64,000 nucleotides of DNA from Trichoplax sp. H2 (lineage: Eukaryota). This document shows positions 7,629 through 64,000 of this stretch, one piece after another (within the stretch, counting starts at the first letter, position 1; every line of letters starts with the position of its first letter). Position numbers and translations under genes: made by a program. Under the pieces are notes generated by a model, which saw only the letters and a program-made list of their open reading frames with translations, was not told where the DNA came from and ran no database searches. Where the stretch lies: NCBI GenBank assembly GCA_003344405.1, contig NOWV01000132.1, forward strand, positions 1 to 64,000, written 5' to 3'.

Positions 7629-7845
7629 TAAATGCCAATCTATGCAAAGGTGTAAAATATGTACCGCACCAATTAACTCTGAAATTTACTGTAGAAATCT
7701 ATTTAAGTGTATTTAATTGTAAATAAAAGTAGCATTTATTAAATGCCAATCTATGCAAAGGTGTAAAATATGTAACGCACCAATTAACACTGAAATTTAC
7801 TGTAGAAATCTATTTAAGTGTATTTAATTGTAAATAAAAGTAGCA
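7629..7845 (+). repeat. Tandem duplication (period 111 bp, 2 copies) inside family G LTR
   Basis: 7629-7734 is nearly identical to 7740-7845; the unit carries TATTTAAG and AATAAA. Confidence 0.9.
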
Positions 7846-8006
7846 ATTGCTTAAGAAGCGTAGAGGAGCTGTAAGATGTAGAAAATTGCGAAATCAGTCG
7901 TCTGCGGAGTACAACCAAGAAATCGAGTACACATATGTCCCTCACATAAAGAATATAAAATACTGCAGGAAAAGTCTCAGTCATCAAAGTAACTTATATA
8001 TGGATG

Positions 8007-10241: not shown

Positions 10242-10867
10242 TTTTACGATGTCATGCACTGTAGTGTCGAGATTAGAACAGATGTGTCTATGTTAGCATA
10301 ATTTTGTTAGCTTACCCATATTTAGAGAGTTTCTAATTTAGATATCTGGTGTTTAAATATAGCACTAGTTTTTATGATATTTATCATATACATATACTGA
10401 AATTTATAGTCAAATTAGGGAATCAAGAATAGTCTATTTACAATTCAAATCGACGTGATTGTAACTTACTTAGGGTAGATTATAGATAGTCGTGGAAATG
10501 TTCCGTTATAGGACATATTGTAATCTGACTATCTTGTATTAGTCGCTAGATTCTATATTCGTAAATAATGTTATCTTCGTTAGGTAGGAGAAAGTAAAAT
10601 TAGTTTTTGATTCATTAGTAGGTTGCAATGCTAATATTACTAACTAGGATGTCTTAAAGAATATATAAATGCGAACTACCGTATAATAAAGTGAGTTCTC
10701 AAGATGTTTGTTTAACATAAAATACGAGGCATATAAGTCTTTTTGTAGTCTGCTAGTATAGGAACAGTATTCATGATAGCGTAGTCATTGCTCCCTGATA
10801 CGTGATTCAGGGAATGGACTTATCGATCGTACATTACACTATCTTGTTTCAAAGCCGTTTTATAACA
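10242..10867 (+). mobile_element. Solo-LTR-like element, family A (old diverged copy)
   Basis: Full-length alignment to family A with decayed termini TTTTAC...TATAACA; TSD GTACA/GTATA. Confidence 0.8.
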
Positions 10868-13800: not shown

Positions 13801-15501
13801 TTATAATGCAAAAAGGAATTTAGAAGCAATTAAGATGGCATTTGAATTTCTAATTAATTACAAAATTAAAGCTTTATTAAAGTAGATGGTTAAAAATTGC
13901 AGCTAAAAAGTAAAGGAGTTCTCTTAGACAATATGCATCATTAGCAAATATTAGTTCAAAAGAATGTTTTAAGTAGATAAATGGTAAAAATTAATATTCG
14001 ATGCGCCTGGCTAATCACCTTATTCTACTTGATTAGAAACATAACTCTAGTATTAACGTAGACTATGAAGTATACGAAATTAAAGTAATACAAGTATTTT
14101 CATTCTCACTAAATCGGTTAATCTGAAGGAGAAGATCACTGGATAAGAATCAGACTATTAATTTTGAATTGCTTAGAAATCTTCAATCAGTTCTCATTTA
14201 ACTTATTAGCATCTTTAATTTACCCAGAAGTGTAGCAACTACCAATAGCAGAGACTAAAAATTTTCAACATACATAGCTGGTGCGGTGCAACCTGCTCAT
14301 TTCGCTGTATTTGATACTTCAGCAATCTTCATATATTTAGAAGAAAATTAAAGAAAATTTTTACATAGGACAAGCGATATTCCTCCTAGCTTTTGAGAAC
14401 TTAATTCTACCAGTAAGGCAAGAAAAATTATCCTTTCCTTTCCGTTAAATGTACACATTGACGGAGACTTTATATGAAATCAATTAAATTTATCAAGAAA
14501 CATCCTTTCTTGCACCGATAAATTTCTAGGGAGAATTTATAACTCACATACTGAAATTACAAATTTATGTGAGTATTGAAAATGGCGAACATTGTTTATG
14601 TTATGTACAAAGATTATTTAAATCTTTTACATTAATTTCAAGCCGTAGTCAATACTGAATACCTTTTAATAGGCCGGGAGAGAAATTTTAATGCAAAATG
14701 CAAAAGCTTTTCCTAATCTATATCATCTAATTGGAGACTAAAGGTAGGATTTAATAATATTCCATCCTTATTACCTTGCTATGATAAGTAATATTGATAA
14801 AGAATTTTGCATAGATATGCAATTTAGACCCTGCAATACTACAGATACTGCTCTCAATAAATTTGAGTATTAGTTTCACAAATACAATCTCTTATAAACA
14901 ATTCTAAGAATCTCGCTTGGTGAGATGTTTAAGTATAATAATTTCAAGTTACGTAGGTATATTTAATTTTTAATCTGTTTCTACTCATAGAATGTGTTAA
15001 ATATTAGCAGTTATCAATGTACAGCTCAAACATTTTATAATTTAAAACTATCTTTAAATCTATTGATGATACTCGTATTATAAACATTTTCAATTAATAT
15101 TTTTTTCATTACAGAAGGTTAGGGATAGCATACAATTTATTTTTTATTGTTATTCTTTGCAGAGAGAATTTGGGCTAAATACAAGTTTGAATATCCAGCT
15201 ATTCTCAGATCTCTGAATGATATTTAAGCAAGACTAAGTCAATCCTGGTCACCCTATCATATTTTTTTACGTTATCAAATTTTATTGAAACTTCAATTTG
15301 TAAGCAAATAGAATATCTAGTTGGCAAAATATACGCATGCTTCAAGCTGTTAAAGATCAACATCTAGTACTCTACTAATAAGGAATAGAGAAGAAAATTG
15401 TTCAAATTAATTCTTTACATAATAAACCAACACCGAATTCAACCAACACGAGCACTAATTTTACGCTGCAAATCGAACACGCACTTACGTAGTTATCTAC
15501 A

Positions 15502-16575
15502 ATGAACTTTTACAATTATAATGCAAGCAATACAACTAGGCCCTTCGATCGCCATCAATTAGCCGCGATTATTTCTATGCCAGTTATATTAACTAACTCG
15601 GCGCTGGTAATTACCATTTGCAGTAAGAGAAAATTAAGAACACCATCTAATGCTATTATTTGCAGTAGTTGCCTTGCATGTATGGTATTAGCAATTTTAT
15701 TAACTTGCAATGCAATTGCATCTTTCTATGAGGACCAAATACAATCAACATTCTTGCTTTGCTTGCTAAACAACGCTTCTGAGTTAACTAGCTCAGCAAT
15801 TATAACATTTCATATCACTACAATCAGCCTAGAACGATTTTTTTCTGTCATCTATCCGTTCAAATATCAACGTCATGCTACTCAACGTAACACAAGTTTA
15901 TTAATAGTAGCATTGTGGTGTACACCAATTTTCATCATTTTTGGACCAGTAATTATTACATCATTATCTCTAAATGGTCATTGCAAAGATTGGTCAGAAA
16001 TAGAAGCATTAAGGATTGTCTGTTATTTTGTTTTATTTCCTATAGTATTATTTTTACCGCCAGTTATGACATTTATCGCTTATTCAGCTATGATATATAA
16101 AATTTTCGCCATGACCCGGAAAATTTGGTCACAAAGTAGTTTTATGTCGAATCAGCGACAAATTTCTAAATATCAATTAATGATGGTCCACAGGAAAGCC
16201 TTATTCCAAATGTTACTGTTATTAAGTATTTACAGCTTATCATTTTTCCCCTTTTTCACCTTTTATACTATTTATATACAATCACAAGGGCAGTTATTTC
16301 GTACAACTACGTATATTTGTTACTTAATAGCAGTGGCCTACATTCTAATCCATCCTTTATTATCGATTCTATTTACTGCTCCCATTAAAGAAGAAATAAG
16401 AAAAAAATTTAAACAATTATGCTCTTCTGCATGTTTTACACTTGGAGAAAAAACTGTCCGAACTCCGATCTCAACGATTATCGATGAAGGATTTAAATCA
16501 GTTGGACACGAATACCAATTAGATATCAGGAAAATATCACCTAATCATTCATCGAATCAAATCATCTTATTATAA
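15502..16575 (+). CDS. Orphan rhodopsin-like 7TM GPCR, paralog 2 (357 aa)
   Basis: 7TM pattern; TN in TM1, LRTPSN, LERFFSVIYPFKYQR, TM4 W, HRKALFQM, YSLSFFPF, HPLL; N-glycosylation sequons NAS, NTT. Confidence 0.95.
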   Translation: MNFYNYNASNTTRPFDRHQLAAIISMPVILTNSALVITICSKRKLRTPSNAIICSSCLACMVLAILLTCNAIASFYEDQIQSTFLLCLLNNASELTSSAIITFHITTISLERFFSVIYPFKYQRHATQRNTSLLIVALWCTPIFIIFGPVIITSLSLNGHCKDWSEIEALRIVCYFVLFPIVLFLPPVMTFIAYSAMIYKIFAMTRKIWSQSSFMSNQRQISKYQLMMVHRKALFQMLLLLSIYSLSFFPFFTFYTIYIQSQGQLFRTTTYICYLIAVAYILIHPLLSILFTAPIKEEIRKKFKQLCSSACFTLGEKTVRTPISTIIDEGFKSVGHEYQLDIRKISPNHSSNQIILL

Positions 16576-17546: not shown

Positions 17547-18098
17547 TGTGATATATACCAATCATGAGATTCCAAATTTTAGAAAAATAAGGGCTTTATT
17601 CAATCTTATACAAAGATTGACTACACACAGCTCTACTCTAGCCGAATACTACTACTAAAGACTTCTACAACGAACTAACAGAATAATCTAAAGTTGCATG
17701 CTTTTATACTTTTCGTAGCATTCGCAGCTACAATCCGCATGGCAACCTTTTACCTTATATTACACATAGTTAAATTATTCTTAGTAAGACTATTCTACTG
17801 CAGACCATCATTAATCCAATACGGATACGACTACAGTAGTTACGTAGACATTATTCACACCAGCCAAAGTACAATGAATTAATCATATCCTAATATATGA
17901 TTTACAGTTCTATTTTTACCTATAGCCTTATTAGTAACTCAACACCTTACTGTATATAATCATCTGTACTCTAGCATAGAGTCTATAACACTACAGTCTA
18001 TAGTTATAGCTACCAAATATCTCTTAGGATAAATATCTACCCCATATTATACTAAATATGGCTAACAGTCTACAATCACAATACTAAGTTACATTACA
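17547..18098 (-). mobile_element. Solo-LTR-like element, family E
   Basis: TGT...ACA termini, perfect TSD TCTGC (17542-46, 18099-103); highly similar to 39479-40028; TATA and AATAAA on the minus strand. Confidence 0.92.
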
Positions 18099-26500: not shown

Positions 26501-28520
26501 CTTATACATAAGAAAAGCTAGCCGGTTAAAAGAAGAATCACTACGTATAAAGCCTAGATACAAGCCATAATAAAAATGTGAGCTGCAATAAAGCGAATTA
26601 ATACGCAAACATACTGTTGATGCAAAGTAAATAGATTACTAAATGAAGGTTAGAATTATAAAACTACAATTTTGCGCTTAAAGGTAAGCAAACTACTTAG
26701 ATACGAAATTTATACGAAAGCTTAACAGTCAAGCGGTGCTCTTATTATTTGCTTTAAATTACCCATAGCTTTGTATGCTTTAAGGTGCTTTAAATTGTAA
26801 CCTAAAGCTACACTTTTGTAGATTTCAAAGTGTACGAATATCAATTCACGTTAGTCAGTATTAAAACCCGTATCTACACTCTCGTTTCTGTTCGTAAGCA
26901 AAACTACCAAGTATATCAGGCTAGCTACCTTCACATTGAAAGGAATTCTAGTTAAGAATCGAGAAAAGACTAATAATAGTGCATGATTATGTTCGAAGTA
27001 GTTAATAAGTTACTTTGGTGAACCTATAAAGGCTAATTTAGCGTTGGTTAAAAGGTATCTCTGTTGGTTCCCACGACACTAATTAAAGACTAATACTTTA
27101 AGTGATCAATAAATTTAGACCATTTTCGTAAAAGAAAAGAAACTACATAATTTGCATAGAAATTAATCTTAGGCATAAAAACATATTAGTACTATGAGAG
27201 CCAGTAATCTGGCTTAGCCTATTCATAAATAATGAAGTGTATACAGTATAGTATATGGCTAACAAATAAAGAAAAAATAATTGGGTATATCATAATTTTT
27301 CGTAGTAGCATTAGCAGTTAGGAATACAATCAAAGACAAACTCGAAAATATTCACTATTGTCTATCAAATGATTATATTAAATTCTGTTAGAGACAGAAT
27401 TCTAAGTTGATGATGCTATACTGATATAAATTACCTATAAGAAGCATATAGAACTAGATATAAGAAAATTTATCGTATATTCACTTCTAACATAACATTA
27501 ATTTAAGGACAACTAGAATAAAATGTAGGCTGCAGTTATTTTCACTCGCTTTACTAATGACCTATGAACTTCATCTAACGATTTGGCATGAGATTAGATA
27601 TATTTAATAACATTATAAATTAAATTTTGTTGAAAGAAATTCATAACCAGTTTGACAGATTACTTAATTAAACATAGGCCATAAATAATTAGCTTATTCC
27701 AGGAAATTTACAATTTACTAAAGCTCATTTTGTTATACAAGTTAAGTTAATAAGACGGCAATGTTACCTTATTTGCAAGATGAGCAGTAGATCAGTAATT
27801 TTAACGATCAATTAGTATTAATCATCTACTACTATTTTAGATTAGACTAAGCAAATAGACAATTGCAGTTTCTGCTTCGATTCATTGTATCATAAAACTA
27901 GATTTACGAAAAAAATTAAGCTAAAAACGAATGCTTTGAAGCGAATTAAATGTGATTATTTATAGCCAATGTCAAGATTCTTTCAATATTAATTTATCTA
28001 TTATCCGTGAAAGTAATAGAAAACTTGAGCATAGGTGTGGAGTCAATTAAGAAACTAGTTAATGATTTATATACAAAACCAACGGAATGCAATGATAAAC
28101 TAGCAGTAATTATTAACGAAGCCTAGCAATTTCTATGAAATATGCTATTGTTCTTATTTATAAATAAAAAATTATAATGTAATGTTTAATTAAAATAATT
28201 CCTTATTTACAAAGATATCATCATAAAAAAATACATTAAGAATGATTACATTCCAAATTTTATCGCCAGATGGAAAACTAATAAGAATCAATCAGACGTA
28301 TGATGATTACTTGTCCTGCTTTCTAGGTTCCACTTCGTTTATACTATTTATCGTTGTGCAAGAAGAACACAGGAAATAGAACACATTTAAAAAAATTGCT
28401 CTATATTCACGACCGGTAAAAATACAAGGGAGAATTAACGAAAGCGCCATTTCGGGACGTTTTAGCAAGTAAAATTTCTGTTAAAACACAAGAAAATTTA
28501 TTTAACTTTCATTGCAAGAA

Positions 28521-29525
28521 ATGAATTATTCTGGAAACTCAAGCGCTAGAGATAATTCTTCAATGGTGCCATTCAATCGTAACTTTCTGTCTGCCACAAT
28601 AAGTGCTCCAACTCTACTGACAAATGTACCATTGATTATATTAATTTTATCCAAATCGAAATTGAGAACTTATTCAAATGTACTTATTGCAAGCAGTTGT
28701 CTAGCAAGCGCATTCTATAGTTTAATGCTAATTTTACGTTATATCCTATCTTGTACAGTATCAGGCAAATTTCTTCCTTTGTTGTTTGAATACTGCATTT
28801 TTGGTCCTATATTTGAAATCACATGTGCTAGTATCTTCAACTTTCACATAACTATAATAAGTTTAGAAAAACTTTATTCTGTTGTTTATCCATTTCGATA
28901 TCAACGCATTTCCAATTCAAAGACTATAACATTGATAATAATTTTAGCATGGTTATTACCATTTGCAATTGTCTATATACCGACATTCATGGCCTCTTAT
29001 AACTCAACAATGTTATGCAGAAGCTTATATAGATCAAAAACATTGGTTATACTACTCAATTACATAATTTTACCAGCAGTTTTATTTATACCTCCACTGA
29101 TTATGCTAGTAACTTACACAGTCCTAATTATTAAAATTTATTCTATTCAAAGCAAAATATGGACTGAAATTATCAATATAAGCGGTAATCTACAAACAGA
29201 AACAGAATCAAAAATTATTCAGAGATTAATGTGGCATCGAAAGCCGATTACTCAAATGTTTATAGTGTTAGGAATCTATTCCATCTCGTTTTTCCCTTTC
29301 TTCTTCTTCTATGTTAATTTAACATCAAGTCGAAGTCAATCTTGGGTACTTCCGACGTATATAACGTATCTATTCGCGATAGCCTATTTCATATCACATC
29401 CAATATTAACAATAATGTTCAATAATTCATTAAAGGTAGAAAGCCAGAAAATTTTAAAGCTTTGCCATTACCGTATAACAAAAGTAGAACAAATGTCAAC
29501 GAAGCTGTCGGTCAATGGAGTTTGA
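28521..29525 (+). CDS. Orphan rhodopsin-like 7TM GPCR, paralog 3 (334 aa from the first ATG)
   Basis: The ORF track starts at TTG 28512; the first ATG is at 28521 (MNYSGNSS...). Motifs PFNR, LRTYSN, LEKLYSVVYPFRYQR, HRKPITQM, YSISFFPF, HPIL. Confidence 0.93.
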   Translation: MNYSGNSSARDNSSMVPFNRNFLSATISAPTLLTNVPLIILILSKSKLRTYSNVLIASSCLASAFYSLMLILRYILSCTVSGKFLPLLFEYCIFGPIFEITCASIFNFHITIISLEKLYSVVYPFRYQRISNSKTITLIIILAWLLPFAIVYIPTFMASYNSTMLCRSLYRSKTLVILLNYIILPAVLFIPPLIMLVTYTVLIIKIYSIQSKIWTEIINISGNLQTETESKIIQRLMWHRKPITQMFIVLGIYSISFFPFFFFYVNLTSSRSQSWVLPTYITYLFAIAYFISHPILTIMFNNSLKVESQKILKLCHYRITKVEQMSTKLSVNGV

Positions 29526-31113: not shown

Positions 31114-34100
31114 AGTATGTATATATATGTTATGTTATGTTATATATATATATATTGGTCGCAGTATTATTGAAGTTGTAGGGACAGAAGTAGACTTAAT
31201 TATTAGGATGTTTTGACGTATTTAAGAAGATAAATTTTAGCTTACAGTAACATTAAAAGATAGGTTACAAAACACTTTAGATAAGGCTTATTTTACTTAT
31301 TAAAATCCTAGTACTTGTATGGCCAGCTTGAAGATAATGAAATACAAAATGCTTTTTTAACCTTTAAGTACAGCAAAAATGCTATTTTTATCTTCGTAAA
31401 ATTTCTAGCCTGTAATAATTGTAAATAAGTACGGTATTAAAGAATCATGATCAGCCTACATCTTGGCAATCTTTAAATCAGATGCTCGTTCTCGGAGTAG
31501 ATATATATTCTAGCAAATAAATTTAATGTATCTAATCATTGGATTGTAGATTATTAGCCATATCTAGCTTGTTGTTCTTACAGGCTGCAAATAATATCGT
31601 ATGAAGATCCTGTACTTAGATATCGAGGGCTAAAAATAGAATGTTGCTGAATTATTATTAATGGTTAATGTAGAGAGAATATATATCCCTAGTCATAGTA
31701 GCTTGTCGTACTGAAGTAGTAAATTATAATATTTACGGAGCACGATAGCTATGAATTTATTTTGTTGCAACTTGTCCGCTAAAATATATTTTACTAATTA
31801 CAATTCAGTACTGCTTGATAAACGAAGACAGTACAGCATGTTGCTCATTTGAAAATAGCCATAGAGTCTGCAAAGAATGCATATAATCGAGCAACTTCGA
31901 ATGATTTAGCAATTCTTTCTAGTGTCATTCTAGTCCTATTAGGCCAGATTCTATGTAGATCTACCTAGCAATATCTTTGTATAAACATTTAATAAATTTC
32001 TGATTTTCTATCAACATTGGAAATTTGCGATATATTTCACTCCAGTCAATTTGTAGTCACTCTAAACTAATAACTTGGCTTCGCCTAACGTAAATTAGCA
32101 AAAAGAAATAGACTTTAATCTTTTATAGTTTAAACATTGAACATTCTCAAAACATATTATTCCAGCTTGTAGAATAGCTTCTAACTGTGAATATTGTCTT
32201 AGAGCACGCTCTTGGATTAATTTAAAAGCAGCCAGTATTTATAATGGTAGTATTTATCACCGATAACGGTCATAAACTATTCAAAGTCATTTAGAATAAT
32301 AAATGAGCAGTCACAGTTCGTCTATTAATTTATTTGATGCAGAGACAACAAGCAAACTAAAAATACCTAACCGCTTTCATTGCTTAATAGTATTCCATCA
32401 TGCTTATCCAGCATGAATCTGTAGGATAGCTTATAGCCTGTATTTCTTGAACTTTAGTAAAGTTGATATTTACAGTCTGCTTATGTCTATATTCGAATCT
32501 AGTTCCAACATTTCTATTACATTAAAATAAGTATTTCTATATATAAACCCAATCAGATCTGTAGTAAAATATTGGATCACTGCAATAAATCTTATAATAG
32601 TTGCACATACGCTGATATATCCCTAACAATTTAATATGCTAAACGAACATTTTTTCTAAGCAAGTAGTGACATCTCAAATAATATGTCGCGAAAGTAATC
32701 TTCGAGACGTATACTTTATTTCTGTTACCTTCTATATATGTTTATATGTCAGAAATGTTTTACGGTCTCCTTAATTGTAATTTTAGTGGTTAACAGTTGA
32801 TATCCTTAATTTAGGATTACATAGACTAAAATAGTTATTGCCAACCAGCTAAACTCGATTATATCTATCACCTCCAAGTTGTTGAGGTTCAAAGTACAAT
32901 TCCTAAGTTTAGAGGAAATACCTTAGTAGGATAGCTTTGTATGTATCTGTTAAACTATCAATAAGTACTGATTATTTTAATACCGTTACAGTAAATTTAA
33001 TAGGGCTAGACTGTACAAATACAACCTGTATTATACATTTTAAGTATAATAAAAAATGTAATAAATAAATTTATTCCTGACGTCATATTTACTAGTCATG
33101 ATGAATAGCTTAGCAATATTACTGCATTTTAAAGAGATTTCTCAAAGCCTACTCAGAAATTTTTACTAGGTTTTTAAAGTGAATAAACATTCCTGCCACT
33201 GTATTTAATTACTGAAGGCCATAGATTTACTTTAGTTATCACCAATAACAGGAATATTTATGACTAATAACAGATACTAAGGTCTATACATATATCATAT
33301 ACCAGTTACAATAGTCATGTAATAGGACGAGTCTGCACCAAATTCTTATGATGTTATTTTTTCTCGTCTACAGGCCAGTAACATTTTAAATAAATTGGTG
33401 ACTAATAGAATGTATTATTAATGCACTGTAACAGATTAACTAGGATCTGAAAAAAATATTTACCGGAAGGGTAATTTTAAGAGCTATTGTTTTAACTTTA
33501 TCTTATTTATATCATCATCTATTATCTCTGCTATCCTAGTACATCCAATGTCTAACGTGATCCATAAGAGTCTTCGTTTAATGTATAATAGTACGTATAA
33601 ATTAATTTGATGGTAAAATATTTTATTCATGAAATTATAGAGCAAAATAATTGTTCCCACCAATGCAAAGACCTTAAAAGGTTTTCAAAAGTGAAAAATT
33701 TTGCTTAAACAGTTGATACTAGTCATTATGGCTTCATAAGCGTTTACGATGGAGCTACTTCTCAAGGATATGAATTAATGATTCTACGTAAATATCACAC
33801 TGAATAATTATTACTCATATCAAATTACTCATTCACTACCAGTTATTTAGAAATTCAATAAATAAAGTAAATTGAATTAATCTTAAAACAAATTATGGAA
33901 AATTGTGTACCTAGCGTCTATCACCACGAGGCATAAGTAAATTATACATGAGAATTTCCTTTTCAATCAAAATAATATATCCGATACATTCACAATAAGA
34001 CGGCCTAGTCGATTTTCATGAATTATAAATAATCAATTATAAAACAAGCAGCAAAACGAATTTTAGTGAATTTTATGCGAGAATATAGTATCTTATGATT

Positions 34101-36356
34101 TCAAAAGAACCTTGTATGGTAAAGAAGCTCTAGATCATGTTATTATTACCACTATTTACCTGATTTCGCTTTCTAGAATTCTAAGCATTTAAATAGATTT
34201 TAACTTTGAAGAGTATTAGAATCTGATTTATCCTGAAAAGAAGATAGCTCAATAATGTCATATTCTGTAAAGACGATTTTTTACTTCAGTTGGTTATGAA
34301 AAATATTATTTCGATATATATTTTAATCATTAGTATTTTATTACAATCTTTGCGTTATAACACTTTAAGGCCTTGAACAAGGTCTATTCCTCGTATTACT
34401 GTATTAGCAGTGTATCTCAAATATACGCTTATGCAATTTATTCAGGTATTTTGTTAATAAAAAAATACCGTAAGTGTTCAAATCAAAATTTAAAACCTCG
34501 AGTTCTTAAAGCCATAAATCAAGACTGCTCTCAATAACAGATTTGATTGTAGAGATTAGTTTAACCTATATACGGTAATGCAAGAGCTAATTACAACATT
34601 GAACTGTACCATTAACAATTATATTAAAGCTCGTTTAAACTACGAACGACAGCATCAAATGAGAGTTTTCAGTGGATAAATGCAAATCCGATCTCATTGA
34701 CATTCAACTACATTAAATGAGTTCTTGTTTTCTAGAATCAAAAAGCAGATTATCGATAATTTAAACTGCAGTATTTTCACGGTACTAAATTACCGTGAGC
34801 AATTATTTTACGTAAATTTGCTATCTAGGTTCTTATGCTATTCTATTACTGTGCTAAATGTAGTGCAAATACATGCAGTAGGAGCAGGTCGGTCATATCA
34901 ATGCTTATCGTTCATTTTATAAAGCTGTAACCTTAACTAGATATATATTATTCTATTAACTTGGTATTCCCTAAACATAGTGGTAAATTCCCGAATATTG
35001 ATGTTGAAAACTGGATTAGCAGATACTATAGTTATCTGCAGATGTATAATAGAACTGAATGATAAACTTATATGTAAATTTCGGAGGTTCTAGACTAAAA
35101 TCTTGTACTAAATGTAAGTAAGAAGTAGGATAATTGGAGATATTTCCCATATTAATTCTGTATTTAACAGGACTAGACTAGAGTTTAGAGAAATCCTTAA
35201 TGGAACATTTTGGGTGAAATACCACCTAATATGATTATATTGTAGGCTTACCCTCGAGGCTTTGATTACAGTAGTGAAATCAGTTATACGTTTACGTTTA
35301 AAATAGCTATTAAAACACTTACTAATTCGGTTAATAAATTTAATTTTGAATTTCGTTTTAAGCTGAAGATTTAACTTATTGTCTAGACCAGCCGATCAGG
35401 GTTCCGACTACTTGAGATATTTCCAGCAAAAGTAGATCGCCTAGTGACATTGTAGTATATACTAATTTTAATTAGTTGCTAGTGACAATAAAAGAGTTGA
35501 AATTACTTTCTCAACCCGTATAACAGGATAATAGATCACAATGTCTGTTTCGGCTTTAATATTAAATTGCGAGTGAATTTAATTAATCCTACGAACCAAA
35601 AGCGTTTCCGGATCGAAAGGATAACTGTTCCAGCTGTTCAATGCAAAATAGTTTACTTATTTGCTGATAATTAAATTAAGATCAGCCGCAATTTAGTTGG
35701 ATCAGGGTACTTTTAATAATTATGAGCCCGCCAATTATTTATAACAGGTATAATAGATACTGCTTAGCAGAATAAAAATTTAGTAAGAAATCGGTAAGAC
35801 AAGGAAATCTTCTGAGTCTAAAGTTCTGGCAGCTAATCTAAAGTAAATTCTAACTGCTTATAATTCATTCTTACCTTACCGATTCTGACGGCATATACAC
35901 GTATCTACGTTCTTTAGCCTTTGATAATAATCTTGCCAGTGTTATATTAATCATGTAGTTTAAATTTTATATGGGCACTTCTCATACTCTCTCTTAGATC
36001 TATAAGTCTGGCTGGATTATTTTCGGGATAAGTTATAGTAAATAGATGAAACTGCCCATTAATGTATACTACTGTAAAATCTGCTGTGTGTACAGATATT
36101 CCGTTTAAATTTCTTCTTGGTAAAGCTAAAGTATAGACTTTTTAATTGCTAGTTTATTCAACAAATTTTTCATTGCATGTGAGAATTTTGATTTACTATT
36201 TGCACATTGAAAAAAAATAACAAAAAATCCTGGAACGACTTTTTATAATAGGTTTCAGCCAAAATTTTAGGCAAAAGTAACTGATATGCTATGATATTAC
36301 TGAAGTCTACAGAAACAAACTAAGACGCAATAACAGAATAAACACGATTTCAGTGT

Positions 36357-37617
36357 TGTGATAGTGTTACATACTGTATTAGAGTAGAAATATCTATGTT
36401 AGGATAATTCTGTTAGCCTTTCCTTATTTAGTTAACTTCTAATTAGGATATACTGTGTTTTAATATAGCATTGACTTTTTATGACACTTATACGCATACT
36501 GAATTAATAGTTATAATAGGGAATGCAAATTATCTACTTACAGTTCGAATCATTGTGATTATAACTTACTTATGGTAGATTGTAAATTATCGTGGAAATG
36601 TTCCGTGATAGGACATATCGTAATCTGACTATTCTGTATTAGTCATCAGATGTCTATGTTCGTAAATACTGTTGTCTGCATTAAGGGAGCAATAGCTATA
36701 ATTAATATCTAATTCAGTAAATGATTCCAAAGTTAATCGTACTAACTATGACTCATGAACTATTGAGAAAGAGTATATAAATGCAGTTGTTACAGTGTTA
36801 AATACTGTATTACAGTAGAAATAACTATGTTAGGATAATTCTGTTAGACTATCCTTATTTAGTTAACTTCTAATTTGGATATACTGTATTTTAATATAGC
36901 ACTGACTTTTTATGACAGTGACACTTATACACATACTGAAATTATAATAGTTATAATAGGGAATGCATATCATCTGCTTACAGTTCGAATCATTGTGATT
37001 GTAATTTACTTATGATAGACTGTAAATTATCATGGAAATGTTCCGTGATAGGACATATCGTAATCTGACTATTCTGTATTAGTTATTACATGTCTATGTT
37101 CGTAAATACTGTTGTCTGCATTAAGAGAGCAGTAGCTAAAATTAATATCTAATTCAGTAAATGATTCTAATGTTAATTGTATTAACTATGACTCATGAAC
37201 TATTGAGGAATAGTATATAAATGCAGTATATCGTGAAATAAAGAAGAATTGTCCAACTTAGTGTTTAACGTAAAATACGAGGCGTTTAAGTCTTTGTGTA
37301 GTCTGCTAGTAGAGCAAAAGTGCTCGTGATAGTGCAGATATCGTTCCTTGATACGTAGTTCAAGGAATTGACTTATTGATCGTAGATTACGTTATCTTGT
37401 TGCAAAGCTGTTTTGTGACAGCAGTATATCGTGTAATAAAGAGGATTCTCAAACTTAGTGTTCGATGTAAAATACGAGGCGTCTAAGTCTTTGTGTAGTC
37501 TGCTAGTAGAGCAAAAGTGTTTATGATAGTGCAGATATCGTTCCTTGATACGTGGTACAAGGAATTGACTTATTGATCGTACGTTACATTATCTTGTTGT
37601 AAAGCAGTTTTGTGACA
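36357..37617 (+). mobile_element. Solo-LTR-like element, family A, outer copy (36357-36787 + 37426-37617 = 623 bp)
   Basis: After removing the nested copy it matches the reverse complement of 40181-40803 with 3 differences by eye; flanks AGTGT/AACCG do not match each other. Confidence 0.92.
36788..37420 (+). mobile_element. Solo-LTR-like element, family A, nested inside another family A copy
   Basis: TGTTACAGTG...TTTTGTGACA with perfect TSD GCAGT (36783-87, 37421-25). Confidence 0.92.
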
Positions 37618-38981
37618 AACCGTTTCAGCCAATTACAGTAACTGTATGCATTTAATATTGTAATCTCAACTGTGGCTGTTACTATCAAACTTACTGTTAC
37701 GGTTGCGCTATAATTAATCAACTTGAACGTGATATAAGAGTAAAATGAGAAAATCGTTTACTTTAGATTATCTTTAATTCCTGCTTGTTAAGAAATATAA
37801 TAAATATTGAAATTAGCAGTATTTAAAATATGCAAAGCAGAAATGACCGCAAGATCTCTTTTAATGGAAATACGGCTGGTAATTGTTGTTATATAACGTA
37901 ATTAGTAACCTATTAATTTTCAGTTACTATGCTTCAAAATTGTTGAAAAAAGAACAGAAAATTAAAATTTTAAATGATTGGATCATATTAAATTACCGGT
38001 AAAGCTGGATATAATGCGATTTCTAAAACACTAGTAACAATTAGTACTGTCATTACAATGTATTATTGATTCTAAGATAATTTGAAAATATGTTTAATTT
38101 CTGCTTTGACCTAGTAAGTTTCAAAGTTGAACATTTTTCATTTCATCATCTCTTACTGTAATAAAGGCAGCTGGATAGAGGTGAGCAAATCAGATTTTCT
38201 TGATAGGCATGTGGATAAATGAATTTGATTCAATAAAGGCGTATTCTAATCACTGCAAGTAAAATAAGCTAGAAGGTGCATGACAACTTCATCCCGACTT
38301 GGGTACTCGATATTGAAACTGCTATTACTTTCAACATAGTATAGATCTTCGCAAATATTTAGGATTTGCTATACAGAGCAGCGTAATTTTACGTTTTTAT
38401 TGTTCATTCCACCTTATAAATTTGTCATGATCATTAATGTATATTATTTTATGCATAATTTATAGTTTTGACGACTAGTCACGATCAAGTTTGCGAAACA
38501 AAGAGTGACCTTTATCAATCTAATAAATCTGCATTATAGCCTGCTGTTAATTAGAACCGCATTTTTAATGCTGGTATTTTGGCACTGCACTCACTTTAGT
38601 GCTCTTTCAAACAAACTTTCTGATAATTATGTTCTGTATAACTCTACCTTAGCAGGCTAAAACTATATCTATTTTTAATTAATGAATGCAATCCCTTTAC
38701 CCTTTACGTATAGAGAGACTTCCCTTTATATGATTATTAAATAAGTAGCTTTCTGAAAGAAAGCAGCAACAATAACACTTCCGTAAGATTCTGAAGTATA
38801 AGACATTAGCTGCTTTCGAAATTAGTATCATCTTCGGTCAACGTATTGCAAAAGTAATTACTGTATACGCGTATAGACAACGAAAGTATCATAACATCTA
38901 ATTGTTTGATCTATTTTAAATTATACTCTTTATTCCGGAAATAAATGATGTAGGAACTTTAATCACTACCAAAAATAGTAC

Positions 38982-39418
38982 TGTCACAAACCAGCTTCGT
39001 GACAAGGATAACGTAAAACAAATCTCTAAATAGTCTTCCGGAATTCAGTATCCCTTAACTACCTCACAAGAATTTAGACGCCTTTGATTCTACGTTAAAC
39101 TCAACTAGACAATTGAGAACTACTTTATTCAAATATCTGACGGGCCTATATACCCTTCTACAGCAGCTAACATTCACAAGTCATCTTATAAAAATACTTG
39201 GGTGAGAACATCTACTAACTAATTTTTCACAGTCGGACTACAATATGTCCATTCACAGAATCATTTCAGAGCACATTATAGCACAGCATTAAATTTACTG
39301 TAACACATTTATAATTAGAGTAATTCCTATAGTAAGTAACTAGTTGTAATATAATATCACTATATTATATTAACCAAATTTAGATATCTATTTCTTCACG
39401 GTAGTTCGTACCGTGACA
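38982..39418 (-). mobile_element. Solo-LTR-like element, family D
   Basis: TGTCAC...GTGACA, perfect TSD AGTAC; highly similar to 57177-57618. Confidence 0.92.
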
Positions 39419-39478
39419 AGTACATATAAGCTTATATCGATATTCAAGATAAAACTCCTTTAATTATTGTAGTGCATC

Positions 39479-40028
39479 TGTGATATATACCAATCACGAA
39501 ATTCCAAATTTTAGAAAAATAAGGGCTTTATTCAATCTTATACAAAGATTAACTACACAGCTCTACTCTAGCCGAATACTACTTCTAAAGACTTCTACAA
39601 CGAACTAACAGAATAATCTAAAGTTGCATGCTTTTATACTTTTCGTAGCATTCACAGCTACAATCCGCATGGCAACCTTTTACCTTATTTTACACATAGT
39701 TAAATTATTCTTAGTAAGACTATTCTACTGCGGACCATCATTAATCCAATATAGATACGACTACAGTACTTACGTAGACATTATTCACACCAGCCAAAGT
39801 ACAATGAATTAACCATACCCTAATATATGATTTACAGTTCTATTTCTACCTATAGCCATATTAGTAACTCCACAGCTTACTGTATATAGTCATCTGTACT
39901 CTAGCATAGAGTCTCTACCACTACAGTCTATAGTTACAGCTACCAAATATCTCTTAGGATAAATATCTAACGTACATTATACTACACATGGCTAACAGTC
40001 TACAATCACAATACTAAGTTACATTACA
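39479..40028 (-). mobile_element. Solo-LTR-like element, family E
   Basis: TGT...ACA, perfect TSD GCATC; highly similar to 17547-18098. Confidence 0.92.
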
Positions 40029-40180
40029 GCATCATTTGCTCTGGCAGTTGTGTCACGAGAATATACTCTTTCCGCTGGTGTTTTTCTAGATCCAATCACA
40101 TATGATCGTTGACATAGGTTAGGTCTTTCTTGGGGGTGTAAATAAGAATATCAGTAAAGACGGAATGTAAATAATATACT

Positions 40181-40803
40181 TGTCACAAAACAGCTTTACA
40201 ACAAGATAATGTAACGTACGATCAATAAGTCAATTCCTTGTACCACGTATCAAGGAACGATATCTGCACTATCATAAACACTTTTGCTCTACTAGCAGAC
40301 TACACAAAGACTTAGACGCCTCGTATTTTACATCGAACACTAAGTTTGAGAATCCTCTTTATTACACGATATACTGCATTTATATACTCTTTCTCAATAG
40401 TTCATGAGTCATAGTTAGTACGATTAACTTTGGAATCATTTACTGAATTAGATATTAATTATAGCTATTGCTCCCTTAATGCAGACAACAGTATTTACGA
40501 ACATAGACATCTGATGACTAATACAGAATAGTCAGATTACGATATGTCCTATCACGGAACATTTCCACGATAATTTACAATCTACCATAAGTAAGTTATA
40601 ATCACAATGATTCGAACTGTAAGTAGATAATCTGCATTCCCTATTATAACTATTAATTCAGTATGCGTATAAGTGTCATAAAAAGTCAATGCTATATTAA
40701 AACACAGTATATCCTAATTAGAAGTTAACTAAATAAGGAAAGGCTAACAGAATTATCCTAACATAGATATTTCTACTCTAATACAGTATGTAACACTGTC
40801 ACA
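40181..40803 (-). mobile_element. Solo-LTR-like element, family A (623 bp), inverted partner of the 36357 copy
   Basis: Termini TGTCACA at both ends on the + strand; flanks ATACT/CGGTT are the reverse complements of AGTAT and AACCG. Confidence 0.92.
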
Positions 40804-43800
40804 CGGTTATGTAGATGAAAGCTGTATAATTACAGAATAGCTAATACATAGTACGACTGGGTCGGAATGAACAAGGACAGCCGGCAAACATTAATTTTTT
40901 TGGACGGTAGATGAATAATTTATGATTTCATTGCAACGGATACTACCCATTCAAAATGTAGATGAAGTCCCAACAATACTACTTTATAAATTAATTATCA
41001 GAAATTTCGTAAGAAATATTATTAAGCCTTAACTCTCGCAAAACTGCACAATCAACTTCTGAATTGCAATTTCTTTCCTAACTCAATACAAGTACTGTTC
41101 TACAACTACTCCAATAAATTGATTGACCCATACTTTCCTCTCGACAAATATTTTATAACCACAAGTTTCGTTACAATATTGTAATATAGAATAGTACGGT
41201 ACTTACCAAAAGATAACTATTTCAAGTACAAACTATTCCAGGCGGTTAACCATTCAACGACGCTCGAAAGTATAGGTATTACAGTATGTAGGATGTTAAA
41301 ATTTTATTCAGCAAAAATTGTCATGATTGTTACGACGAATAAGTTATCTAATACCCTATAGATCATACTAAAATCTCAAAGCAAAAGCGTGTTTATTGCA
41401 CAAATGATGAGTATAACTTTACCCGATATCTAATGTAACCATAACAACAGAACTGAATTATTATATGTAAGAGATATATAATGCAGATACATCATTTACT
41501 ATATTCATTATTTAAAATCTCAAATATTAAGATCATTGCCAATATTTCCTTTCTAGTTAGGTTATCAATTACTATAATCTGCTCATACTCTTCGTCTAAT
41601 ACTAGAACAGTATCTACAAGCGATCTCATTAAACTCGATCTACTTCACTTTGGCTGTTACCACATTATGAGGGTAAATTGTTGGATGGACGGGGTCAAAA
41701 TTTAAATTTTAGATTCAATTTTTAAGATTCGTAAATTAATTAGCGTTATTTCAGATAACTATTATTCTAGTACATCTACTAATCCCTATTATCAATATCT
41801 ATTATTATTAAAGTAAAAGCAATTGATTTACATTAATTATAACGCATAAATTATTGCAAAAAATACTATATGAAAAATTGTATGATGATCCTAGATCAGT
41901 GTGAAATAAATATTGAAGTAGCTATAACAGAGTACTAATCCTATTACTCTAAATAATGGAAATGAATTAAGAAAGCCAGATATAACTAAGTTAACGACAT
42001 TTGATTCTTACTCCAAAATTGTATTCTATATATCTTACTTTCAATAAATTAGCTAGTATGCAAAATATTATCGTGAGATAATTCCAATTCCAATTGAAGA
42101 AAACACGTGTTTGTGGTAGTAGGCGCTGGAATTAAGGATGCAGATATTAATTAATTATTAAATCTAAACTAGGGATAAAAATATTTTTCCAATTCATGCA
42201 TGAAAGAGCTAAACAAGTACTTAGCTATAGCTTTCCACTATTCTATTCATTCAATTTAATAACAACAGGTATAATGAATATAAATACTTAAAAGTAGACT
42301 GACTCAAACTCGATGCTTAACACCTTTTTACATCGTATAAATTTCTAACAAAGATACGAAAACGAATATAAAATAATTCTTAACAGACAATTCGGTTCAT
42401 TCCATTCATCAATTTTTCTCTCACGATGTAATATATATATTTCTTAGTTCAATTAGGTTTACGAATGATTAGTCCCCTATTGCTACTTCATTTTTTATAC
42501 GTATTAACTACAAAGTCAAACAGAATTCGTACAGCTCTTAATCGAAACTACTGTCATTCCTTTATTTTGCTAAGCTTGAAAAGCCTTGGTAGCCTATCTA
42601 AAGTGAATTTTATCTAGAGCTACCGTAGATCGCTTATGAAAGCAATTTAGTCGTTTTAGCATGCAAATGTAATTTTTTATATGTTAAAGATGAAGTTCAT
42701 TTTTTTTTTCATAAACAGCCGTGTAACAAATTTATCAATCGATGCTTATAATTATATCCAATTCGAAAACGTTTAAAGTGTGCCATTAAGAAGGTATTAC
42801 TAACTCTTGATATATATACAATTCTTCTATCCTTCAAGATCATTCTAAAGCAGAAAATGATCTAATTTAGCTATATTAATCTATAAGATGTAGTGACTAC
42901 ACTTAAAAATACGCCATCATTACTGCATATAATGTAGCTACGCAACAAATCTATCGATTGATCCTGTTGATTATATCCAATAAAAAAATGTTTAAAATAT
43001 GTTATTAAGAACTGTAGTAAAGCTAATTGTTAAGAGCATGAACAGCTAATTATGTTAAACTACACGAGCACTGCATCTTACGGCAGCTCATATTAGCAAT
43101 TTGGGTAATAATTAAGAACTCAACTTCAGTGCTAAACTTGCGGTACTACAAGATGGTACTACAAGCCCTTGATATGTAAGTAAATTCACCTACCCTTAAA
43201 GATTTATTGGTAAACAAAAATGATTTAATTGAGCTGCGTTAAGCTATTTGATGTAGTAATCTCAATTACAGAGACGCCATCACCGCTGAATATCTTTGTG
43301 AATTGGTAAACTTCTGATAGATCCCAAACGTGATCTTATGATACATTAATGTTTAATTATACCTATCTTGAGAGTCACAAAGTAGTCACATTGAAGGGAT
43401 TACCATTAAGGTGAAATATAGCGTACTAGAAATTAGTATATCTGCGATCATATCGAACTAGAGTCTTAATCTAGCATAATTTTTCATAGTAATAAAATTA
43501 TGTATTCTTTATCTTTTATAAAATTTTATATGGTTTAATCATATTAACGAGTAAACAAGAAATAATCATACAGTGATTAAAGATTAAGTAATAAGAAAAC
43601 GAATATTCTCTACATAACTGCTATGATAATGATTAGAGAATTTTCCTAATTCACGTTACGGCAATATTTATCATCCATACATATACAGTAATCATCTTGA
43701 GACGAGATACGTACTAATCAAAGCTTCAGAAGCGATAGAGAGACTAATGATGCTTATTTAAGCTAATATTCAATGTACTATGCAACGAAATATCACAATA

Positions 43801-46800: not shown

Positions 46801-47585
46801 AACATTCAAAATATAGAAAATCTGTTTTGATGTCACTTCCTAGCAACACAAGCGCTAATTGCTAGCTTTTCGTCTGCCCTTGGCGAATACAGGACATATT
46901 AAATATTTATTGGATAACAGTATCGTTTGTAAAACAAAGACCTAGCTTATTTGTCAAATATTCTTTAAATTAGTATTTAATTGAAAGCCTTACTAGAAAG
47001 AGAAGATAATTAATTATTTAAAGTGTGAAAACTTTTCTTTCCTTCATCCTAGATTATAAATATCACAATTGTAGTCCATGGCTATTGTTAATCAAGTATC
47101 GAGACGAAATTTATAAAGTGGAAGCAAAGAAACCGTTATAATTTGGCATATACGGCTAAAATTTATAATTTAATAATTATCAGCTATAGCACGGATCTAC
47201 CGTATTTCTATTAGAATTATAATTGTTAAGAATAAAAATTACAATTCTAATTCTTAAATTTCAATTTTAAAATAACAGTAGCTTCAACACAATCATAAAA
47301 CCCACTCGAAATATTAACATCTTTAAGTGATTAATCGAAACTCAGTATTTACTGCTAAAATATCTAACAACATTAAATTTACGAAGAAGATTTAACCGGG
47401 ACTGAAGCTCAACATTCTCTAACCGTAGACTGATCTTGCTTATCTATTTCTTATCATGAGTATTTCAAAAGGAATCTAGCAATTTTAATCGAAAAAAATT
47501 TGGTCGCTTAACCTATAACATCACCGAAGGATTTAAAAATTAGCTTTTGTAGACTTTTTGTGAATACTGAAAGATATCTGGTAAG

Positions 47586-48584
47586 ATGCCTGATAACGAA
47601 CAAGCAGCAAGTAACATTTCACAACCACCATTTAATCGTCATCAAATGGCAGCAGTTATTACGGCTCCAGTCTTAATGACTAATATAATCTTAATACTTC
47701 TAATTTCTACACAAAGAAAGTTAAGAACACCATCGAATGCTATCGTTTGCAATAGCTGTATAGCTTGTCTCGTATTAGGAATTATTCATATTGTTAGTGC
47801 TGCTATTTCTCTCAATCAAATAAGTCAAACAGAAAATATTGCTTTATTTTGCTTCTTTAATGAATCTACCGAACTAGCTTTATCTGGTGTTGTCACATTT
47901 CATATCACCATTTTAGCTTTAGAACGTTTCTTTTCAGTAGTTTATCCATTTAAATATGAACGCCTTACCACAAATAGGAATATTGCAATCTTATTATTAT
48001 CTCTTTGGATTATTCCAATTTGTGTTATCTTCATACCTGTGACGGTAACATCGCTAAGTATTGGTGGTAATTGCGATGAATGGTCTGAGATTCCAAGCGT
48101 ACGAGTTGTTTTTCTTTACGTACTCTTCCCTTTAGTTTTATTTATCCCTTCAATTATTACTTTACTGGCATATTCGGGTATAATGTATAAAATTTATATC
48201 ATTACAAGTCAAACCTGGTCACAACAAACTTATACCAATTATCAACGAAATAGTTCACGTTATCAATTGATGGTTGGCCATAGGAAAGCATTATTTCAAA
48301 TGCTTATACTTCTGACGGTTTATTCTTTATCCTATTTTCCTTTTTACGCCTTCTATGTTATTTACATCGAATCCAATCGTCAAATACTTGCAACAGCCGC
48401 TTATGTCAGCTATTTAGTAGCAATTGCTTATTTAAGCTTTCATCCCATTTTAATCATGTCCTTTACTGCAAATCTAAAAGAAGAATTTGGCAAGCAATGT
48501 CATCGCCTACTTTTCCCCTGTTCATCCCACTCAACTAAGAACAAAATTCATGTTTCTACATTTATGACCAGTACAGCATATTAA
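47586..48584 (+). CDS. Orphan rhodopsin-like 7TM GPCR, paralog 4 (332 aa), closest to paralog 2
   Basis: PFNRHQMAA, LRTPSNAI, LERFFSVVYPFKYER, C.EWSEI, HRKALFQM, HPIL. Confidence 0.95.
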   Translation: MPDNEQAASNISQPPFNRHQMAAVITAPVLMTNIILILLISTQRKLRTPSNAIVCNSCIACLVLGIIHIVSAAISLNQISQTENIALFCFFNESTELALSGVVTFHITILALERFFSVVYPFKYERLTTNRNIAILLLSLWIIPICVIFIPVTVTSLSIGGNCDEWSEIPSVRVVFLYVLFPLVLFIPSIITLLAYSGIMYKIYIITSQTWSQQTYTNYQRNSSRYQLMVGHRKALFQMLILLTVYSLSYFPFYAFYVIYIESNRQILATAAYVSYLVAIAYLSFHPILIMSFTANLKEEFGKQCHRLLFPCSSHSTKNKIHVSTFMTSTAY

Positions 48585-61170: not shown

Positions 61171-63798
61171 TCGAATATTCATCTACAATTATGTCTGTCA
61201 CCCTACCATATTAAATGAGTTATTGAATAGGTGCATTGCAATTCATAGGCACAATTAAATGATAGAGACACCATCCTAGCGTATCCCCCATGTTTACATT
61301 GCGATAATTGTTTAAAATTCTTTGTTAAAATCATAACGTTATTTCCACTAATAGACGGAAGTTAAGGTCATCGCGGAGCCATTTTCATTCAAATGCAAAT
61401 GAAATCTCTTATGACAGTTCTATGATGAAAGTAGCTTAGCAGACAGAGCTGTTTAACATGATCTGAGTGAGTTTTAAATAAATTATACTTTTTATCAAAT
61501 TTTATAAAGCATTTAATATTCGCTTGCCGTCAATAATCGGCATGTGATTAAATGTACCATTATATAACAATTATGATAAGTTGTATATTTATTGATCTTG
61601 AAATTTAAGGTTGATCTAGTGCACGGAAATTTACACGTAGAAGAAATATCCGTTAAATACCCGTTAAAACGCCTTTTATAATCTATTATAACTAGGTAAT
61701 CGCAAATTGTATTTTAAATGTTATTATTGTTTTCAAGTTTCTTCCATTTCGATTCTCTTTATTGAACATGTATAAACGAGCAACAACATACCTCGTACTT
61801 ATATAGGAAATAATACTTCATTGACATGATAAAGTTAGATAACGTATGATGACTTGTATCGATTTTTTTAATTTAAATTTTTTGTGATCGTTAAAATTAT
61901 ATTATATTTGACGTGAAATTATATCAATAAGTTAGATTTGCACACCTAATATCGATTTTTCTAATGATTAATGGGCCTAACATGAAATAGATATAGTTAT
62001 TCCATCTTTCAAGTATATTAGAGTAATAAAAGCGCTCAATCGCTCTCTTCAATAATTAACTGATAAGTACATCAAATGGCATATTTGTGGTAGCTTTCTA
62101 AATTTGAGGAATTCCTTACAATGTATGGACAGATTAAATTAATTAGCGGTACCACTTTGGAGAACTATTGTTACTTTAGTTTGAATACCTTATCAAAATA
62201 AACTAATCAAGGGAACCATCGCTTCACAGCCCATTTTTTTTCAATTGCACGTAATATCTATTTCATTATTAGGCTAGACAGGTTTATTTATCAATTAAAT
62301 AGCCTTTTGATACGTCAAATGTGATGGAATAACTGATTCATCATTCTATAAAAAGATAATAAATTTTATGATAGAAGAATATCATTTAAGTCCCTACTTT
62401 TTTTTCTGTAGCAAATAATCAATCGGAAAAAGTGAAGAATAAAGAAACTTCTCTTATCATATGTCCCTTTCAATCTAGGAATCGTACTTTCTTTTCATTA
62501 CCTAGAATATCGTATTGATTTCCCAATGTAGCTAATAAATTAGGATAATAATAGCTCTTATTGCTGTCAACAATCTTGAATTTGTTTTGTTTCAAGTACT
62601 CCTTTGTCAATGATACAATTCATTTCATTCTGTTTTGATTAAGATGCTATCTAGATAAATCTCAGTATATGATTGATCTTAGTAGTTGATTTTCAAATTT
62701 AACTTATGGAAGTAATAAAACAATAATAATGATGGAAGAGTAATTATTAATCAGTAACTTAATAATATAAAATAAAGTTCTTCCATCTAATAATGGCCTT
62801 AAAATTCTGATTCGTCTCCAAAAATTCAAAAAGATTTTTTTTAGAGTAATAATTTAGTGTTTAGTTTTACGGCCATCATAAAATAATATAAGATTTAAAA
62901 ATAGCATTGACATTATCACATTATAAAGATCCAACTTTAATTAAATTAAAGATAAAATAATTTGTAATCCTGACTTTGGTGCGTTCTAACTCTAAAAGCG
63001 ATATCATACTTATCAAACGGATGCAACTGCTTCCAACTTGATTCTACTTTTACTAATGAACAATTAAAGTGAATTGTTTTATTCAAAAGAGCTATTCCAA
63101 GTAATTTAATGTAAACGAACAGCATTATTCACATAAATTTATATTACATGTAAATCAAATTTGATCAATTTTAACTGCTTAGCAAATTACAATAGTATTA
63201 CATTCTCTTTCATTTCTATTTAAATAACCTATTATAAACTATAGAATTGTCTAATTCCATTATCATCTCGATATTAAAATTCAATGCATTCAATTAATTC
63301 TAAATATTAATAGAAATAAAATTTATCGAAATCACAGGCGTTTTATGTGAGAATTGTTGTAGTCTTGATGAAAAATTTATTTTATTGACAGAATGCTAAT
63401 AGATGTCTTAATTAAAATAAAAGATTCTCTGTTTTTGTAAGTGACTATTCAATGAAAAAAGCAAGTATAATTGATTGCTCTAGTGATGTTAACTGTCAAA
63501 TCGGCGTTCAGTAACTACGAATAGGATGGTGGAAGAAGTCAAAATTTTAGAAAACTTTTAAATATCTCTTTCAACGGTATATCTACGCCATTCATAACTT
63601 TTCTCCAATTCGAAGATTAAGTGATAAGGAACCGACATTTTCTGTCTAAATAGCATCAAAATCAAGCCTTACTCAAATATAATCATTCACTTTATCTGAA
63701 AAGAGAAGTTTTACAAGGCGTCAACTGTAATCAGGTTTCTAAAATATAAATAACGCTACAAATATCGTTCGATTCGTGATATTAAAATCTCGATCAGA

Positions 63799-64000
63799 AT
63801 GAGTCTAAATGCGCTTATTACATATAATACCACCAAGCCATTTAATCGCTATGCCATGGCTGCTATTATAACAGCCCCAGTCCTCGTTACCAACATCGGC
63901 GTGGTAATGTTAATAGTATGCAAAGATCGTTTGAAAACTCCATCCAACGCAATCTTGTTAAGTAGCTGTGTGGTTTGCCTCGTTTTAGCGATCGAATTAA
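63799..64000 (+). CDS. Orphan rhodopsin-like 7TM GPCR, paralog 5 (5' part only, runs off the window; absent from the ORF track)
   Basis: Manual translation MSLNALITYNTTKPFNRYAMAAIITAPVLVTNIGVVMLIVCKDRLKTPSNAILLSSCVVCLVLAIEL aligns with the N-terminus, TM1 and TM2 of paralogs 2 and 4. Confidence 0.93.
   Translation, partial: MSLNALITYNTTKPFNRYAMAAIITAPVLVTNIGVVMLIVCKDRLKTPSNAILLSSCVVCLVLAIEL

Follow-up and report, generated by a model that had tools for sequence, protein, structure and literature searches.

The first 64,000 nucleotides of contig NOWV01000132.1 of Trichoplax sp. H2 (assembly GCA_003344405.1) were analysed, and this whole stretch is referred to below as the window. On the plus strand the window carries at least five intronless paralogs of rhodopsin-family G-protein-coupled receptors (GPCRs) in tandem, located at 3949-4929, 15493-16575, 28506-29525, 47571-48584 and 63784-64000, the last being the start of the fifth gene. 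These genes gave Pfam 7tm_1 E values of 2e-12 to 2e-18 and show 31-51% identity among the paralogs; a protein atlas placed them only in generic clusters of rhodopsin-family GPCRs spread over several animal phyla. Units read as solo long terminal repeats (LTRs) of at least three families, called A, B and C here, lie between the receptor genes. Two family A copies stand in opposite orientation at 36357-37617 (plus strand) and 40181-40803 (minus strand), and the fourth receptor gene lies 6.8 kb from this pair. The two copies bracket a segment of 2563 bp, are almost identical, and each is flanked by one half of the target site duplication of the other. An earlier note on this DNA had proposed that the bracketed segment was flipped. 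The present analysis favours, with a probability of about 0.7, recombination between two old inverted insertions together with gene conversion.

Architecture of the inverted LTR pair

The repeat unit was defined as 623 bp by a repeat search of positions 35000-42500 and by blastn of the minus-strand copy against the whole window. The minus-strand copy at 40181-40803 is uninterrupted over its 623 bp (TGTGACAG...TTGTGACA). In the unit, its TATAWA is found at position 418 and its AATAAA at position 441. The plus-strand copy occupies 1261 bp of DNA, a span on which the earlier note was silent, and is split by a nested copy of the same family. Its first part (36357-36787, plus strand) covers LTR positions 1-431, starts with TGTGATAG, carries TATATAAA right before the nested insertion and is identical to the minus-strand copy at 429 of 431 positions. 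The second part (37421-37617, plus strand) covers LTR positions 427-623, ends with GTTTTGTGACA and is identical at 196 of 197 positions, its first 5 nt being the repeated GCAGT. The nested solo LTR itself has 633 bp (36788-37420, plus strand; TGTTACAG...TTGTGACA) and is flanked on both sides by GCAGT (36783-36787 and 37421-37425), which is its own 5-bp duplication. The single GCAGT at the matching place of the minus-strand copy is the empty site for this nested insertion. The nested LTR (36783-37425) was also observed to part the TATA box from the AATAAA in its host LTR, being inserted precisely between these two motifs, and so to split the presumed promoter from the poly(A) signal.

After the nested copy and one GCAGT were removed from the plus-strand copy, on which the validity of the count depends, the two copies differed at exactly 3 of 623 positions. 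These are LTR positions 6 (T/C), 172 (A/G) and 612 (A/T), given as plus-strand over minus-strand copy, and the identity of the pair is 620/623 (99.5%). The three differences reported in the earlier note are exact on this basis. The comparison set for family A consisted of the five copies in the window. The identity to the minus-strand copy was 92.3% for the nested copy, 92.6% for the copy at 672-1141 and 76.3% for that at 10251-10867, and the pair at 99.5% stands out among the five, which bears out the remark in the earlier note that it shows far fewer differences than other family A copies. Beyond the TG..CA ends of the two copies the pair has no further similarity apart from one A shared by chance, and a segmental inverted duplication was ruled out on this ground.

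The architecture of the unit was examined along with that of the other repeats. Family A has TG..CA termini of the form TGTGACA...TGTGACA-3', and its terminal inverted repeat is only 7 nt long with 6 of 7 positions complementary. The motif TATAWA followed 23 nt on by the motif AATAAA was found in 4/4 family A copies, including the one that is 76% identical. No reading frames of note were present in the unit; the only open reading frames (ORFs) within the pair are of 63-71 aa, all inside LTR sequence. The family B and C copies of the interval are built in the same way. Perfect 5-bp duplications were found for all four other solo LTRs counted, namely the nested copy (GCAGT), a family C copy (AGTAC) and two family B copies (GCATC, and TCTGC on both sides of the copy at 17549-18098). 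This count comprises the solo LTRs with both ends read and leaves out the old copy at 10251-10867, whose flanks do not match as read, and the copy at 672-1141, whose 5' end is absent. For a family C copy near 57177 there was no matching flank pair (GAAAC/GGGAC).

There are approximately 11 LTR-like units in the window and all of them are solo. The window yielded no retroelement ORF of at least 110 aa, nor a full-length element that carries these LTRs. A metagenome scan with a 17-nt LTR-end motif gave at least 120 loci, and blastn of the LTR against these loci returned only matches of 21-31 nt, which are due to chance. Judged by their architecture, the units are probably solo LTRs.

Exchanged target site duplications

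The flanks of both copies were read in the orientation of each copy. The plus-strand copy has AGTGT as its 5' flank (36352-36356, plus strand) and AACCG as its 3' flank (37618-37622, plus strand). The minus-strand copy has AACCG on the minus strand as its 5' flank (40804-40808, read from 40808 to 40804; CGGTT on the plus strand), which is identical to the 3' flank of the plus-strand copy, and AGTAT on the minus strand as its 3' flank (40176-40180, read from 40180 to 40176). These flanks are as the earlier note had described them. In this un-swapped state the two flanks of each copy match at 1 of 5 positions. The reverse complement of 37618-40180, which the earlier note had suggested as a check, was made in silico and gave AGTGT/AGTAT for the plus-strand copy (4/5) and AACCG/AACCG for the minus-strand copy (5/5), so that both copies regained matching 5-bp flanks. 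The possibility that the pair represents the two LTRs of one element was ruled out, since re-inversion leaves either LTR bracketed by a duplication of its own.

The agreement expected by chance was estimated from 200000 random 5-mer pairs drawn from the window. The probability of a 5/5 match was 0.0020 and that of a match at four or more positions was 0.028, and the joint probability of the swapped-flank pattern arising by chance is about 5.6e-5. The flank pattern of the pair is real and far beyond chance. Together with the perfect 5-bp duplications of the 4/4 other solo LTRs checked, the flanks support the proposed flip of the segment enclosed by the copies.

When two inverted transposon copies carry swapped duplications, this is the accepted signature of ectopic recombination according to a study of transposon-generated inversions (PMC2775673). 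The same flank geometry has been described for the intramolecular replicative transposition of IS26 and Tn4401 (PMC4471558). As the geometry is the same for recombination and for transposition in one step, the flanks cannot choose between the two routes.

Transposition in one step was the route preferred in the earlier note. A chromosomal LTR unit would here have behaved as a transposon with its ends joined to a nearby AACCG, which would duplicate the unit and invert the interval. This might proceed by replicative intramolecular transposition in trans, in the style of IS26 and Tn3, or by hybrid-end insertion via sister-chromatid copies, in the style of P, Ac/Ds and hobo. The exchanged flanks are exactly as both models predict (PMC4471558, PMC2775673). 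The copies are nearly identical as well, and identity is what separates hybrid-end insertion from recombination, the former being described as yielding identical copies and the latter chimeric ones (PMC2775673). AACCG, which would be the new duplication, is perfect and the one that would be old is mismatched, which fits the same route, as do the solo state of all the approximately 11 LTR-like units and the lack of a retroelement ORF of at least 110 aa in the window. Against it stand the LTR architecture, the 7-nt terminal inverted repeat, the conserved TATA box and poly(A) signal and the absence of a transposase from the unit, and nothing that was observed requires such a transposition. The substrate of retroelement integrases is the end of a linear complementary DNA, and no enzyme is known that nicks or mobilises an LTR embedded in a chromosome.

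Probable gene conversion and recombination, and orientation of the interval

The distribution of the variants shared by the pair was studied in public data, that is, in contigs of four runs (X1, X2, X9 and X11) of the 20 that cover part of the stretch, at 90% likeness. The summed contig depth over the LTRs was 20000-100000, compared with about 30 in the flanks for X1 and about 60 for X2. The depth of the LTR contigs in X1, X2 and X11 was 1000-3000 times that of the flanks, which indicates a very high abundance of these families. The pair is set apart from both the nested copy and the copy at 672-1141 by 12 positions, and LTR positions 64, 336 and 563 are also among its shared variants. In X1 the window letter accounted for 28.8 of a depth of 9133.9 at 36420, 114.7 of 14137.9 at 36692 and 78.3 of 5199.7 at 37557, the other letter taking up 9105.1, 14023.2 and 5121.4 respectively. 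At the mirror places the other letter accounted for the entire depth, with 15375 of 15375 at 40468 (mirror of 36692) and 94184.7 of 94184.7 at 40241 (mirror of 37557). The pair would thus appear to form an almost private sub-lineage, a reading qualified by the loss of rare variants from contigs. The earlier note had held that many unlinked family A copies of equal near identity would count against its preferred route; the outcome was the opposite, the variants shared by the pair being nearly absent from the family contigs. As these variants are nearly private, the near identity of the pair needs a local cause, and they are also in keeping with a one-step duplication.

The placement of the three differences was analysed further. 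Two of the three, those at positions 6 and 612, are 6 and 12 nt away from an LTR end, and for two of three to be this close p = 0.0043 under uniform placement. Conversion tracts are bounded by homology and differences are therefore expected at the LTR ends. Comparison with the other window copies revealed that the plus-strand copy is derived at positions 6 and 612 and the minus-strand copy at position 172, and the private letters at 6 and 612 adjoin unique flanks. The near identity of the pair is, as read from these sites and from the near-private shared variants, best explained by gene conversion.

The age of the insertions was assessed from the flanks. The duplications are mismatched at 1 of 10 positions while the LTRs differ at 3 of 623, and the probability of at least one mismatch is about 0.05 if the flanks are as young as the LTR divergence. 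Because the mismatch is improbable at this divergence, at least one insertion should be older than the last time at which the LTRs were identical. This bears on a simpler history, in which two recent insertions from one source were followed by an inversion through recombination but with no conversion, the three differences being later mutations. Such a history predicts the same exchanged flanks, and in a family so abundant (depth 1000-3000 times the flanks; five copies in 64 kb) close neighbours are not rare. The variants of the pair are, however, nearly absent from the family contigs of X1, X2 and X11, where no sizeable young subfamily is visible, and the differences are concentrated near the LTR ends (p = 0.0043). 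The mismatch between AGTGT and AGTAT is likewise improbable (about 0.05) for two insertions no older than 3/623 implies. The near-private variants and the mismatch together disfavour independent insertion from one source and point to a local cause, either conversion or duplication, and two recent insertions with no conversion are considered unlikely.

Duplication in one step is the local cause that the earlier note had put forward for the near identity. Mutations that follow such a duplication should spread evenly, yet two of the three differences are 12 nt or less from an end (p = 0.0043), and gene conversion supplies a local cause in its place. The replicative route found no support here, as it predicts the same flanks as recombination, the unit has no coding capacity and the differences are not evenly spread; it is regarded as very improbable. 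A form of it in which a retroelement-type integrase would act in trans, with Shapiro-type or hybrid-end strand transfer into AACCG, seems just as remote, and what weighs against this form comes down to the placement of the three differences and enzymological priors.

Recombination between inverted solo LTRs, the other route named in the earlier note, is the standard explanation and fits all the observations. The anatomy, the flanks, the three differences with their places and the scarcity of the variants shared by the pair are observed; in the account that follows, we infer how the interval was first oriented, that crossover and conversion took place, and in which order the events came. Two family A retrotransposons would have inserted about 2.6 kb apart and in opposite orientation, at the targets AGTRT and AACCG. 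Each insertion would have made its own 5-bp duplication and would then have been reduced to a solo LTR. A crossover between the inverted LTRs, by homologous recombination, would have flipped 37618-40180, swapping the inner halves of both duplications, and gene conversion, either in the same repair event or in later exchanges, would have homogenised the LTRs except near their ends. A later family A element would have entered the plus-strand copy and would itself have been reduced to a solo LTR.

Several points weigh against this account. The assembly is the sole source for the orientation of the interval, and neither an empty site nor an un-inverted chromosome was seen in the contigs of the four runs. 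With only three differences no parental blocks are legible in the two copies, so that the chimeric structure which would prove a crossover is unreadable. The argument from the clustering at the ends concerns three sites and was made after seeing them. Polishing with short reads could erase interior differences of close repeats and keep those next to unique flanks. The full-length element with these LTRs, from which the solo copies would descend, was not found.

The junctions of the LTRs with their flanks were examined in the same runs. The contigs of X1 cover all four junctions (34854-36392, 37576-39008, 40003-40222 and 40774-42162), and those of X2 cover three of the four among the pieces listed. 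The contigs of both runs enter the LTRs only 30-43 nt from each flank. Two contig ends lie exactly 30 nt past the pair differences at positions 6 and 612, and those letters are therefore linked to their flanks as in the window. X1 and X2, which come from two studies, confirm the insertions and the flanks; the data are uninformative on orientation. No contig spans an LTR in X1, X2, X9 or X11, and as the four junction sequences are equal in either orientation, the runs do not tell the orientation. No joint marking an empty site or the opposite orientation was present among 15 of 87 joints. In X9 and X11 the single-copy parts are thinly covered, at a depth of 0-7, and these two runs are uninformative on presence or absence.

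These results leave room for a reading with no fixed inversion, in which the assembler misoriented the interval or picked one state of a segment that exists in two orientations, the other state having normal duplications. No contig of the four runs crosses an LTR so as to lend independent support to the orientation, and both misjoins and reversible inversions are known to arise at inverted repeats of 99.5% identity (PMC12047244). Inversions between inverted repeats are called likely reversible in that paper. On the other side, the 64 kb contain no letter N despite families of thousands of copies, which suggests that the reads were far longer than 624 bp. The linkages between single-nucleotide variants and flanks at the four junctions also agree with the window in X1 and X2, though they are no test of orientation. 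A misoriented or alternating interval is accordingly rated as quite improbable.

Three further observations were made in these runs. The single-copy contig at 37576-39008 has a lower depth than the flank contigs (21.9 against 29.4-34.9 in X1; 37 against 58.2-60.1 in X2) and shows no difference from the window over 1433 nt, compared with 2-8 differences in each flank contig; its GC content of 0.30 compares with 0.28-0.31 in the flanks. This stretch of the interval may be missing, or unlike, on some chromosome copies. In addition, contigs of single-copy depth in X1, X2 and X11 abut family A, B and C LTR ends at the joints 37420/38982, 37420/39478, 37421/40803 and 39418/40803, with 0-6 letters between and with short matched sides of 21-49 nt. 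These joints appear to be other loci and may reflect a preference for insertion at LTR termini. In X11 the three LTR families reach about the summed depth of X1, and other contigs there have a depth of 35-59 where this locus has 0-7. At 90% likeness, the organism of X11 seems to have the repeats in common but scarcely the locus itself.

The probably flipped interval, related systems and significance

The contents of the interval read as inverted (37618-40180, 2563 bp) were examined. It consists of single-copy non-coding DNA (37618-38981 and 40029-40180) and two other solo LTRs. The family C copy (38982-39418, minus strand) is 437 bp long, has the perfect duplication AGTAC and ends on the minus strand with GGTTTGTGACA. 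Its TATAWA and AATAAA are 23 nt apart as in family A, and on the minus strand both this spacing and its 3' end are shared with family A, to which family C is related. The family B copy (39479-40028) is 550 bp long (TGTGATAT...CATTACA), has the perfect duplication GCATC and was assigned no orientation. As an exchange between inverted repeats flips only the DNA enclosed by them, no features other than the family B and C solo LTRs change direction.

The longest stop-to-stop frames in 37618-38981 do not exceed 62 aa, and no Rfam family reached the gathering score in 34000-43000. A search with tblastn using four paralogs and E values up to 10 revealed no GPCR remnant between 29525 and 46309, and a GPCR pseudogene in the interval, considered as an independent marker of orientation, was rejected as tblastn gave no match. 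The idea that the segment is an invertible switch acting on the fourth receptor gene, raised in the earlier note, is unsupported; the flipped interval holds no gene, GPCR remnant or Rfam RNA. No functional consequence of the proposed inversion is visible, and nothing was seen by which it could affect the fourth paralog. Elsewhere in the window a unit of 109 bp is repeated in tandem at 7629-7848 with 97% identity.

The locus was compared with known systems. Close inverted repeats are kept alike by gene conversion, as in the concerted evolution of palindrome arms. The pair resembles such arms in that inverted repeats a few kb apart are near identical while dispersed members of the family diverge; conversion in the present case is deduced from three differences and contig depths rather than observed. 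The exchanged flanks are also known from the Galileo elements of the 2z3 inversion of Drosophila buzzatii, which likewise has opposite homologous copies at the segment ends, exchanged duplications and other transposons at the breakpoints (PMC2775673). The present case differs from it in having 623-bp solo LTRs instead of a DNA transposon, a non-coding segment of 2.56 kb, copies 99.5% alike in which chimerism is not demonstrable, and no un-inverted chromosome at hand.

The chimeric CR elements of maize centromere 10 are similar in that mismatched 5-bp duplications are read there as recombination between insertions (PMC4806543). Chimeric elements, deletions and solo LTRs are reported in that paper, and a small inversion between inverted solo LTRs is not among the cases described in its available part. 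The transposition of IS26 and Tn4401 in trans has the same outcome as seen here, with a second inverted copy, an inverted interval and half of a new duplication at each copy, and the Tn3 family also makes 5-bp duplications (PMC4471558). Those elements are bacterial, encode a DDE transposase of their own and move by a replicative pathway that has been documented, whereas the present unit is non-coding and LTR-like and is situated in a eukaryotic GPCR array.

The event at this locus is of a known kind, to which it adds a further example, and the rearrangement is clean but unremarkable. Identical flanks result from recombination and from one-step transposition, which sets the limit of flank bookkeeping as a method; if the one-step route were true, LTR units could move as DNA. 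The locus represents a transposon-mediated micro-inversion, resolved to the base, in a eukaryotic GPCR gene array, and it illustrates that flank bookkeeping alone can expose small inversions in a single assembly.

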